39,242 bases of DNA, from NCBI GenBank assembly GCA_038065015.1, contig JBBTRU010000036.1:1-39242 (forward strand), in the 5' to 3' direction. The DNA comes from Patescibacteria group bacterium. GTDB taxonomy: Bacteria > Patescibacteriota > Patescibacteriia > PEXW01. Position numbers and translations under genes: made by a program. The first letter of the stretch is position 1. Each line of letters begins with the position of its first letter. Below, piece by piece: positions 16,353 to 18,084 of the stretch. The notes below the pieces were generated by a model that was not told the DNA's origin, did not search any database, and saw nothing but the letters and a program-made list of their open reading frames with translations.

Positions 16353-16389
16353 ACAAAAAAGTGGACACAACGTACACTAGCGCAATCGT

Positions 16390-16465
16390 CGGGGTGTGGC
16401 GCAGTTGGTAGCGCGCTTGCATGGGGTGCAAGAGGCCCCGGGTTCAAGTCCCGGCACCCCGACCA
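16390..16465 (+). tRNA. tRNA-Pro (anticodon GGG), CCA encoded
   Basis: Hand-folded cloverleaf: acceptor CGGGGTG/CACCCCG, D stem GCGC/GCGC, anticodon stem CTTGC/GCAAG with loop AT-GGG-GT, T arm CCGGG-TTCAAGT-CCCGG, then A-CCA. Confidence 0.9.
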
Positions 16466-16623
16466 GCTCGTTTCTCACGTCGGGCTACGTTTTGCCGTGA
16501 ACGGCAAAAACTTCGCCCTTCGTGAGAAGCCTCGCTTTACCCCAGAAATTCGTACTCCCTCGCTTCTCTCGGTCCGTGCCAAATTTCTGGGGACCCCGAT
16601 ATGAATGCACTATCCAGACTTAT

Positions 16624-16651
16624 TTGCATAGCCTGTTTTTCCTGTTACACT
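16624..16651 (+). promoter_or_regulatory. Candidate promoter for the metK leader
   Basis: TTGCAT (16624-16629), 16 nt, TACACT (16646-16651). About 15 nt upstream of the candidate aptamer. Confidence 0.4.
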
Positions 16652-16663
16652 GTTTGTACAATT

Positions 16664-16840
16664 CGCGTATCAAGAGTGCTGGGAAGAGTTCTCGCTCGCT
16701 TACCTGTCCGCCGACCTTCGTCGGCCGTAGCCGACTTCGGTCGGCAAAGGCCGAAGCCTTGGCGGAGGTGGACACCCAGCCGGCAACTCGTCTGTAATAA
16801 GACATAAGTGCTACTTCGAGCCCGCAAGGGAAGATACACA
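16664..16840 (+). promoter_or_regulatory. Candidate SAM-I-clan (S-box-like) riboswitch aptamer upstream of metK
   Basis: GUAUCAAGAG-U-GCUGGG...CCCAGC-C-GGCAAC...GUGCUAcUUCgAGCCC-GCAA-GGGAAGAUAC. P1 is GUAUC (16667-71) / GAUAC (16833-37). Matches S-box core strings as I recall them. Confidence 0.5.
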
Positions 16841-17032
16841 GTTACCACCAACTGCCTTCCGTTTACGCGGAAGGCGCTTCGTAATGTATATGCCTTCCCC
16901 TCTCTCGCCCTTCCTCCGGACCTATCGGTCCGTAGGACCGGAGGTCGGGCACCTGGGTGCTTCCGATGGGTCGCACCCGCCTGCGGCTCCCCAAGGTGAG
17001 AGAGTACTGTAAACGTACTCCATTCATATAAT

Positions 17033-17056
17033 CGTATCTCTTTTCGTAATTCGTAA
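17033..17056 (+). repeat. TTCGTAA-heptamer element upstream of metK
   Basis: CGTATCTCTTTTCGTAATTCGTAA, then ACGCT, then ATG. No SD. Confidence 0.8.
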
Positions 17057-17061
17057 ACGCT

Positions 17062-18084
17062 ATGCTTACCACGACAGAGTCAGTCACCATTGGCCACCCG
17101 GATAAAATCTGCGACCAAATTTCGGACGCGATTGTGGACGCCTACCTCGTACAAGACCCCCTCTCCCGCGTGGCGGTGAACAGCATGGGCTCACATGGCA
17201 TCCTCTTCATTGGCGGGGAGGCCACATCGAAAGGCACGGTGGACCACGCCAAACTCGCCGAAACACTCTACAAAGAAATTGGCTACGATGAGACGCTAAA
17301 AATCATCGTGAATGTGGTGCCTCAATCCCCCGACATTGCCCAAGGCGTGGACACCGGCGGCGCGGGCGACCAAGGCATGATGTACGGCTTTGCCACAGAT
17401 GAGACACCCGAAATGCTCCCCCGCCAGGTTGTTGCCGCCCACGCCCTCACCCGCGGACTCACTGCGCTCCGAGCAAAGCCAGGATTTGAGTGGTTGAAAC
17501 CAGACGGAAAGTCACAGGTGACGTATGCGAATGGAAATCTCAAAACCATCCTCGTCTCCTGTCAGCACGCAGAGAACATTGAGCAGGTAGAAATTAAAGC
17601 GCAGCTCACCGAGCACCTCTTCAAGCCAGTATTCGGTAATCTCACTGGTATTGAAATTCTCGTAAACCCAACCGGCCGCTTTGTCCAAGGCGGATTCTTC
17701 GCTGACACTGGCTTAACCGGCCGGAAAATTATGGTGGATACCTACGGCGGCCTTATTCCGCACGGCGGCGGCGCTTTTAGCGGCAAAGACCCCTCGAAAG
17801 TTGACCGTTCGGCTGCCTACTTCTGCCGCTACGTGGCGCGGCAGCTGGTGAAGCGCGAACTCTGCCACCGGGCGACCGTGCGCGTGGCCTACGCCATTGG
17901 CCGCGCCGAACCGGTGATGGTTGATGTGGAGAGCGATGCCAAGGAAGACCTGCGGCCGCTCATCGAGAAGGAGTTTGACTTCACGCCTAAAGCGATCATC
18001 GAAAAGCTCGGCCTCCGCAAGCCCATCTACAAGCAGACCGCAGAGAACGGTCACTTCGGGAATCCGGTATTTCCGTGGGAGTAA
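17062..18084 (+). CDS. metK: S-adenosylmethionine synthetase (short, 340 aa)
   Basis: GHPDKICDQISDA, GAGDQGMMYGFA, DTYGG and GGGAFSGKDPSKVDRSAAY motifs. Confidence 0.95.
   Translation: MLTTTESVTIGHPDKICDQISDAIVDAYLVQDPLSRVAVNSMGSHGILFIGGEATSKGTVDHAKLAETLYKEIGYDETLKIIVNVVPQSPDIAQGVDTGGAGDQGMMYGFATDETPEMLPRQVVAAHALTRGLTALRAKPGFEWLKPDGKSQVTYANGNLKTILVSCQHAENIEQVEIKAQLTEHLFKPVFGNLTGIEILVNPTGRFVQGGFFADTGLTGRKIMVDTYGGLIPHGGGAFSGKDPSKVDRSAAYFCRYVARQLVKRELCHRATVRVAYAIGRAEPVMVDVESDAKEDLRPLIEKEFDFTPKAIIEKLGLRKPIYKQTAENGHFGNPVFPWE

Follow-up and report, generated by a model that had tools for sequence, protein, structure and literature searches.

What governs metK, the gene for S-adenosylmethionine (SAM) synthetase, in a groundwater bacterium with a genome of 0.93 Mb? 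The question arises on contig JBBTRU010000036.1 of a Patescibacteria group bacterium (assembly GCA_038065015.1), of which positions 1 to 39,242 were analysed as a whole and are referred to here as the window. A first-pass annotation, made from the letters alone, had placed a riboswitch of the SAM-I clan with an enlarged P2 helix upstream of metK. This proposal is borne out by matches of orthologous leaders to the Rfam family RF00162, by covariation, and by class-wide matches to a model built from the leaders (R1, below); the downstream gene is metK as claimed. The 5' leader of metK very probably holds, at 16664-16840, the aptamer of a diverged S-box (SAM-I) riboswitch, through which SAM would exert feedback by transcription termination. 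For the identity and architecture of this variant our confidence, drawn from sequence comparison, is high.

A SAM-I riboswitch before metK is not in itself new for Patescibacteria-like genomes, canonical examples being frequent in the class. What is new is a dispersed repeat inside the aptamer, a natural series of replacements for the kink-turn (k-turn) of P2, and a second repeat abutting the terminator stem. The elements of the aptamer and the gene that it precedes are as follows (P, paired region; J, joining region; MFE, minimum free energy).

16665-16671, forward strand: 5' strand of P1; GUAUC 16667-71 pairs with GAUAC 16833-37 and G16665 with C16839 (covariation of the outer pairs among 30 sequences; MFE fold).
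16672-16676, forward strand: J1/2, AAGAG, with the pocket residue equivalent to G11; G16676 pairs with C16781.
16678-16683, forward strand: 5' strand of P2a, GCUGGG, pairing with CCCAGC 16775-80.
16686-16697, forward strand: P2b hairpin GAG-UUCUCG-CUC (GAG 16686-88 with CUC 16695-97); CUCG 16691-94 in its loop is the 5' half of the pseudoknot.
16700-16772, forward strand: extra branch of about 70 nt, inserted into the P2 internal loop on its 3' strand and representing one copy of a dispersed repeat that consists of a hairpin cluster.
16775-16781, forward strand: 3' strand of P2a, CCCAGC, and next to it C16781, paired with G16676 to close the junction (covariation, pair map).
16782-16812, forward strand: P3; GGCA-A-C 16782-87 with GUGCU 16808-12, inner GUCU 16790-93 with AGAC 16800-03.
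16817-16820, forward strand: CGAG of J3/4, the 3' half of the pseudoknot, pairing with CUCG 16691-94.
16821-16830, forward strand: P4, CCC-GCAA-GGG (16821-23 with 16828-30), inside the four-way junction; 92.9% paired and conserved, without covariation.
16833-16839, forward strand: 3' strand of P1, GAUACAC (covariation, pair map).
17062-18084, forward strand: metK, the regulated gene, encoding a 340-aa SAM synthetase with all three domains of the enzyme (Pfam PF00438, PF02772 and PF02773).

The core strings read in the first pass all lie where it put them: GUAUC-AAGAG at 16667-76, GCUGGG at 16678-83 with CCCAGC at 16775-80, CGGCAAC at 16781-87, GUGCUA at 16808-13, CCC-GCAA-GGG at 16821-30 and GAUAC at 16833-37. 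A four-way junction with P1, P2, P3 and P4 in SAM-I order is present in the pair map, in the unconstrained fold and in the covariation of 30 sequences. When 16664-16840 is folded without constraint, the MFE structure (-71.2 kcal/mol, z -2.7) contains P1, P2a, P2b, P3 and P4, with the insert as a separate rod.

The pocket residues are present at 16668-76, 16782-87 and 16808-11 (the U-A pairs of P1, AAGAG, GGCAAC and GUGC); in the family alignment the corresponding columns hardly vary, and in the alignment of orthologues they match the RF00162 consensus. J1/2 reads AAGAG in seven of nine family leaders and CAGAG in the other two, and in the orthologues it agrees with that consensus. P3, whose outer and inner parts both covary, carries the equivalents of A45, A46, U57 and G58. 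A ligand other than SAM, for example S-adenosylhomocysteine or another adenosyl compound, might be entertained on the grounds that RF00162 scores fall below the cut-off, that the P2 internal loop is altered and its k-turn missing, and that the pseudoknot is changed. Yet in our own mapping to the numbering of the Thermoanaerobacter tengcongensis aptamer every SAM-contact equivalent is unchanged (U7, G11, C44, A45, A46, U57, G58, A87 and U88), the regulated gene is always metK, and the change in the pseudoknot is compensatory rather than disruptive; we regard another ligand as very improbable.

Beside P3 as it stands in the window, we observed that the helix is enlarged to 60-110 nt in G001, G005, G007, G008 and G010 (loci L009, L015, L011, L101 and L107; genomes are given by number, the window genome being G000). 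The enlargements share a 3' motif of approximately AGCGA(C/G)UGGU(G/A)CA, mostly preceded by GAGC, which points to an extension of P3 that some members of the family conserve.

Compared with the SAM-I riboswitches of RF00162 (metK, yitJ and other met and cys genes of Bacillota; the T. tengcongensis aptamer), the element shares the four-way junction P1-P4, the core of AAGAG, GGCAAC and GUGC, a canonically placed pseudoknot joining the P2 loop to J3/4, the location before metK, and a terminator-type stem with a 5' arm able to pair alternatively with the aptamer on its 3' side. It differs from them in its pseudoknot (CUCG:CGAG as against the usual CUGG:CCAG), in lacking the NNN-GA strand of the k-turn, in bearing on the bulged P2 strand a repeat of about 70 nt that forms a third helix, in the displacement of the terminator U tract by a second repeat, and in its scores, the family lying below the RF00162 cut-off and the window being unmatched. 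SAM-IV (RF00634) and SAM-I/IV (RF01725) are not known to have a P4 within the junction and carry a different 3' pseudoknot helix after P1. They resemble our element in the ligand-binding core and in a P2 without k-turn; unlike them, the window has P4 (16821-30) between J3/4 and the 3' strand of P1, and RF00162 is the best match within the clan for the orthologues.

How the region is shared among relatives was examined by blastn, using 16600-17100 as query against 40 related genomes, and it divides into four parts. Two of these, 16637-16700 and 16773-16874, are conserved once per genome within the same genus and family, and in G006 and G004 the two halves adjoin. The other two, 16700-16773 and 16878-17070, match many sites, the former in other genera and the latter in the window genome itself and its kin, and are therefore dispersed repeats. 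The riboswitch core is kept before metK in nine other genomes of the family, and the compact leaders, which lack the insert, all sit before metK.

When scored against RF00162 (gathering cut-off 44.4 bits), the insert-free metK leaders of G006, G004 and G002 align along model positions 1-108 with 35.2, 28.2 and 26.1 bits (E-values 1.1e-4, 0.012 and 0.049), and in these orthologues RF00162 outscores the other families of the clan. For a search fitted to the lineage we aligned the six leaders of the genus (alignment A2), annotated the SAM-I helices onto the alignment and built model R1. This model matches 17 of 151 genomes of the class, namely the window genome, matched once at 112 bits, and 16 of 150 others. 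Within the order, 11 of 13 genomes contain exactly one match, and in all ten other genomes it precedes metK. Thirteen of the elements matched in the class also pass RF00162, at 51-74 bits, and five more reach 34-44 bits; the family variant grades into canonical SAM-I.

A search with MetK of genome contigs returned, among the best 80, mostly distant phyla and none of the close kin; the best named relative was a Candidatus Parcubacteria metagenome-assembled genome (57% identity), whose metK leader passes RF00162 at 56.2 bits. With RF00162-passing elements both in the class and in that genome, canonical SAM-I is evidently common around this lineage. The remark in the first-pass annotation that riboswitches were not known to be widely reported in genomes like those of the Candidate Phyla Radiation (CPR), if read as rarity, is not sustained here, as SAM-I elements above the cut-off occur in several families of the class. 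Among the papers searched we found none pairing the terms 'SAM riboswitch' and 'Patescibacteria', and those naming riboswitches alongside CPR or Parcubacteria describe no SAM-I there.

Some SAM-I elements of the class sit before genes other than metK. G092 has tandem aptamers (L104:330-452 and L104:531-634), both above the RF00162 cut-off, before a 257-aa open reading frame (ORF) that is not MetK, while canonical elements at L105, L108, L110 and L122 (G013, G058 and G038) precede small ORFs of 91-138 aa, likewise not metK. G013 holds three canonical copies.

If the fold is maintained, then changes on one side of a helix should be matched on the other. In alignment A3 (30 sequences), 92.1% of cells in the helices are paired, compared to 35-46% when partners are slid; A3 was fitted to the model and consists of kin, which makes its pair counts lean towards structure and has to be set against the identification. 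Double changes occur in 16 of 29 pairs, and the observed values were reached by none of 500 shuffles. P2a shows compensatory changes in six of its seven pairs (95.8% of cells paired). The pseudoknot CUCG 16691-94/CGAG 16817-20 reaches 98.1% pairing, and each of its four pairs shows double changes across the class: it reads CUCG/CGAG in the family and CUGG/CCAG, CUGA/UCAG, CUAG/CUAG, CAGG/CCUG or UUGG/CCAA elsewhere. Slid controls at -2, -3 and +2 give 36-47%; the control at -1 gives 96.6%, but from 29 cells only and with no double changes. Compensatory covariation, named in the first pass as a check, is accordingly found in P1, P2a, P3 and the pseudoknot.

The first-pass annotation had offered another pseudoknot, between CGAAG 16752-56 and CUUCG of J3/4. 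This pairing was rejected: CGAAG lies within an insert that four genus-mates do not possess, and the pseudoknot that covaries is the one at the canonical position.

Recent changes tell the same story at shorter range. The window differs from G006, its closest relative, at 14 of 107 aligned columns; six of these differences fall in helices and make up three compensatory doubles, two of which, 16687/16696 (G-C to A-U) and 16793/16800, are unique to the window genome. The genome-specific doubles indicate that the aptamer fold stayed under selection in this lineage. Chance likeness in GC-rich repeats, or a small ORF (e.g., 16601-16807), could be invoked in place of a riboswitch, given that mechanically called ORFs overlap the region and that the window has no Rfam match. 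But three genera retain the core before metK, and the insert of about 70 nt is present in some leaders and absent from others, which would break any reading frame, covariation at the RNA level is strong, and the insert-free orthologues match RF00162 end to end. That there is no riboswitch here is scarcely credible.

The enlargement of P2 is not what it had been taken to be. The first-pass annotation had the distal part of P2 replaced by some 90 nt forming three small hairpins. P2b is in fact kept, with its three pairs and its 6-nt loop, and the extra 70 nt or so form a branch on the 3' strand. Three hairpins do exist, at 16710-25, 16730-45 and 16747-60 (loops CUUC, UUCG and CGAA), within that branch rather than in place of distal P2. 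The branch has a basal stem of approximately UCCGCC 16707-12/GGCGGA 16761-66, and in MFE folds it forms a self-contained domain that leaves the core intact.

In G006, G004, G002 and G001 the insert is absent and its place is taken by 7 nt. Searches by blastn found 18 copies of the repeat elsewhere, in G008, G011, G025, G005 and G009; six examined closely are 88-96% identical over 45-55 nt, and two of the six adjoin tRNA genes. In the window genome no second full copy was found, and Rfam assigns copies of this repeat and of the downstream composite repeat described below to no family. Shorter versions with the same basal stem occupy the same P2 site in G005, G007 and G009, while an unrelated hairpin fills it in G008 and G010. 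Across the family, then, the internal loop of P2 holds differing helices on its 3' strand, which is a permissive hot spot for them.

Such insertions stand where SAM-I riboswitches have their k-turn. We judged k-turn status from the loop strings, strict pattern matching being too strict for the offsets in the alignment. The GA dinucleotides that the first-pass annotation saw on both strands of P2 do not hold up: the 5' strand has AA (16684-85), and the 3' GA (16771-72) lies two nucleotides off P2a. Remnants are kept in A16685 (A1n) and in a G at L1 (16698). Compact genus-mates have GAU or GCU followed by AU or AC, without GA, on the 3' strand, and GA on both strands occurs only in genus g3 (G008 and G010). 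Most class-mates outside the family carry NNN-GA; a few without it still pass the RF00162 cut-off. From the 3' strand of this loop the canonical k-turn pattern has been lost in the family of three genera.

Against the identification as a working SAM-I riboswitch stand, besides the composition of A3, the absence in the window of the canonical k-turn (a 3-nt bulge, then tandem G.A/A.G), together with what is known of its importance: in T. tengcongensis SAM-I, disruption of the k-turn abolishes SAM binding, and its replacement by a pk-turn makes binding 1000-fold weaker (PMC3672288). To these are added the Rfam results. A cmscan of the whole window at gathering thresholds matched tRNA-Pro at 16390-16462 alone; no family is reported at E<=10 in 16460-17100, and RF00162 is unmatched at E<=10 across the entire 0.93-Mb genome. 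All family members fall below the RF00162 gathering score or are unmatched. The first-pass annotation had said that a lack of any cmsearch hit would speak against it, and formally that is the outcome in the window; the conclusion that no riboswitch exists does not follow, as the insert-free orthologues do match RF00162. The window is missed because of the P2 insert.

A helix at the position of a k-turn recalls the k-junction, a three-way k-turn known from thiamine pyrophosphate (TPP) riboswitches (PMC4005666, PMC10573300). By definition a k-junction has its extra helix on the non-bulged strand and retains the G.A pairs (PMC10573300). The branch at 16700-16772 sits on the 3' strand, the one that is bulged in the SAM-I k-turn, and only genus g3 keeps GA on both strands; the branch is therefore not a k-junction as so defined, and we rejected that reading. 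Another parallel is the engineered SAM-I with an artificial RNase P pk-turn (PMC3672288), which also has an asymmetric loop without tandem G.A pairs and whose P2 loop must still reach J3/4, although the variants here are natural and conserved. The forms found in the family are a loop of 2 x 7 nt, a loop plus hairpin, and a loop plus repeat-derived branch. One could go further and suppose that the k-turn was replaced by a helix-accepting loop, and that in G000, G005, G007 and G009 the repeat is an exapted helix that helps to bend P2 and so lets the CUCG loop reach J3/4. We put this forward tentatively and think it unlikely.

For a riboswitch to act on metK, the leader must be transcribed and must contain an expression platform. 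The features that flank the aptamer are listed here.

16624-16651, forward strand: promoter-like sequence, TTGCAT (16624-29), 16 nt, and TGT-TACACT of extended -10 type (16643-51).
16839-16854, forward strand: hairpin CAGUU-ACCACC-AACUG linking aptamer and terminator stem, kept in G006, G002 and G005.
16854-16875, forward strand: terminator-type stem, GCCUUCCG (16854-61) with CGGAAGGC (16868-75), conserved in six leaders of the genus.
16876-17056, forward strand: dispersed repeat of composite make-up (three components), lying after the terminator stem and before the start of metK.
16878-16885, forward strand: first component, the TTCGTAAT unit.
About 16900-17005, forward strand: second component, E2, a structured element of about 110 nt with complementary ends CUCUCUCGCC and GGUGAGAGAG.
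17022-17056, forward strand: third component, the TTCGTAA-repeat motif.

The promoter-like TTGCAT-16-TACACT reported in the first pass is present, its hexamers at 16624-29 and 16646-51. A scan of 16380-17120 for the strict sigma-70 consensus found no promoter; TACACT (TACAGT in one case), mostly after TGn, keeps a constant distance from P1 in G006, G004, G002, G001, G005, G008 and G010, and this constancy in seven kin supports a promoter. Transcription would start about 7 nt past the conserved TGnTACACT, near 16658. The hairpin at 16839-16854 may serve as a spacer between aptamer and stem; in G001 it is shorter (CAGU/ACUG).

The post-aptamer hairpin was correctly located in the first pass, and its stem, CCUUCCG/CGGAAGG, is kept in all six leaders of the genus. 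We propose that when SAM is bound, P1 and P4 would be locked and CUUCC 16856-60 left free; the stem at 16854-75 could then form and RNA polymerase would stop before metK, giving feedback repression. When SAM is not bound, GGAAG 16829-33 (the 3' strand of P4 and the first residue of P1) would pair with CUUCC and delay the terminator. In this mechanism our confidence is moderate. The alternation with GGAAG that the first-pass annotation foresaw can be drawn by eye as a 5-bp helix and is absent from the MFE folds, so that the logic of termination can be offered only as a proposal. G012, from a sister family, has the same competing design with 7 bp; its k-turn is canonical, its terminator strong and its pseudoknot CUGG/CCAG.

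The mechanism, too, has points to answer. The terminator stem, being invariant, shows no covariation (RNAalifold on the expression platform); the antiterminator amounts to 5 bp only, and thermodynamic folds of full leaders show no sign of it; and the tail of the window, GCUUCGUAAU, is the least U-rich of the genus, with no terminator called there by the terminator scan. The second of these might suggest control by something other than intrinsic termination, that is, Rho-dependent termination, mRNA stability or translation initiation, the hairpin at 16854-75 being just part of the platform. Tails are modest in U not only in the window but also in G004 and G001, and the leaders of the genus show no Shine-Dalgarno sequence ahead of metK, which makes initiation unusual. 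On the other side, the compact leaders place hairpin and U-rich tail 20-35 nt before the ATG, which they exclude; G006 and G012 have textbook terminators of stem plus U run; and in both the 3' arm of the terminator mimics the 3' strand of P4 and J4/1, as in classical S-box competition. We consider control by such other means decidedly unlikely and retain intrinsic termination as our reading.

A more serious alternative is raised by the composite repeat. It is absent from the leaders of G006, G004, G002 and G001, and has replaced the U-rich tail and spacer found in genus-mates. E2 folds at -60.9 kcal/mol (z -4.0) and has copies on five other contigs (C61:26337-26439, C29:1557-1616, C1:45960-46076, C10:12824-12860 and C60:4306-4342); its 40-nt core is 90-97% conserved across the genera of the family, and E2 is often followed by the TTCGTAA motif. 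That motif (consensus approximately ATTCGTAWTTCGTATATTCGTATCYCTTTTCGTAATTCGTAA) occurs 22 times in the genome, other sites being C3:1704-1738, C25:4001-4035, C29:2906-2935 and, on contig C36 of the window, 52032-52066. Eleven copies, including that of metK, are oriented alike and directly precede the start codon of an ORF of at least 80 aa; in nine of the 11 the gap is about 2-6 nt, with no Shine-Dalgarno sequence between. The motif looks like a promoter or leader module, or else like the product of a strong insertion preference.

The aptamer could thus be real and yet no longer control metK, a recent relic left when the composite repeat removed the U tract and perhaps brought a transcription start of its own close to the ATG, in which case metK would be expressed constitutively. 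A motif placed before start codons in half of its copies would fit a promoter or leader module; a terminator is called at the stem and U-rich tail of G006 and none in the window, where 3-4 of the 10 nt after the stem are U as compared to 4-7 in genus-mates. However, the aptamer is undecayed, every helix difference from G006 being part of a compensatory change and two of the doubles being specific to this genome; modest tails are shared with other leaders; and the consensus scan finds no promoter within the repeat or elsewhere in its range. Loss of control is a possibility that we rate as somewhat unlikely. Under continued SAM-dependent termination, the second insert probably lowers termination efficiency in this genome, and hence the dynamic range of the switch.

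Misassembly does not account for the arrangement: each junction is crossed, with no difference, by contigs of two samples and of a second study, and contigs of the two samples also span the P2 insert without differences. The N-terminus of MetK, MLTTTESVTIGHPDK, is identical in the window genome, G006, G004 and G002, with the start codon unchanged. A second N-terminal type, M(A/Q)QR(T/K)HIFTSESV, occurs within the genus in G001 and G005 (L009 and L015) and resembles that of the other two genera.

The tRNA-Pro gene lies just 5' of the riboswitch region. Directly 3' of it and before the riboswitch promoter, at 16466-16595, are two long hairpins without a U tract: UUCUCACG with CGUGAGAA, and CCCCAGAAAUU with AAAUUUCUGGGG.

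A real riboswitch is missed entirely by a standard Rfam scan when a dispersed repeat sits in its aptamer, so that riboswitches in small, repeat-rich genomes are undercounted. From the second repeat it can be seen how a leader may be altered by dispersed elements while the gene is untouched. Were the exaptation suggested above to be true, the metK leader would show, in nature, a mobile repeat recruited as a functional part of the aptamer of a riboswitch. The family and its sister family together present four forms of SAM-I, with a canonical k-turn (sister family), a plain asymmetric loop, a loop plus hairpin, and a repeat-derived branch, the pseudoknot covarying in all. This natural series is material for studying the dispensability of the k-turn, so far approached by engineered mutants (PMC3672288).

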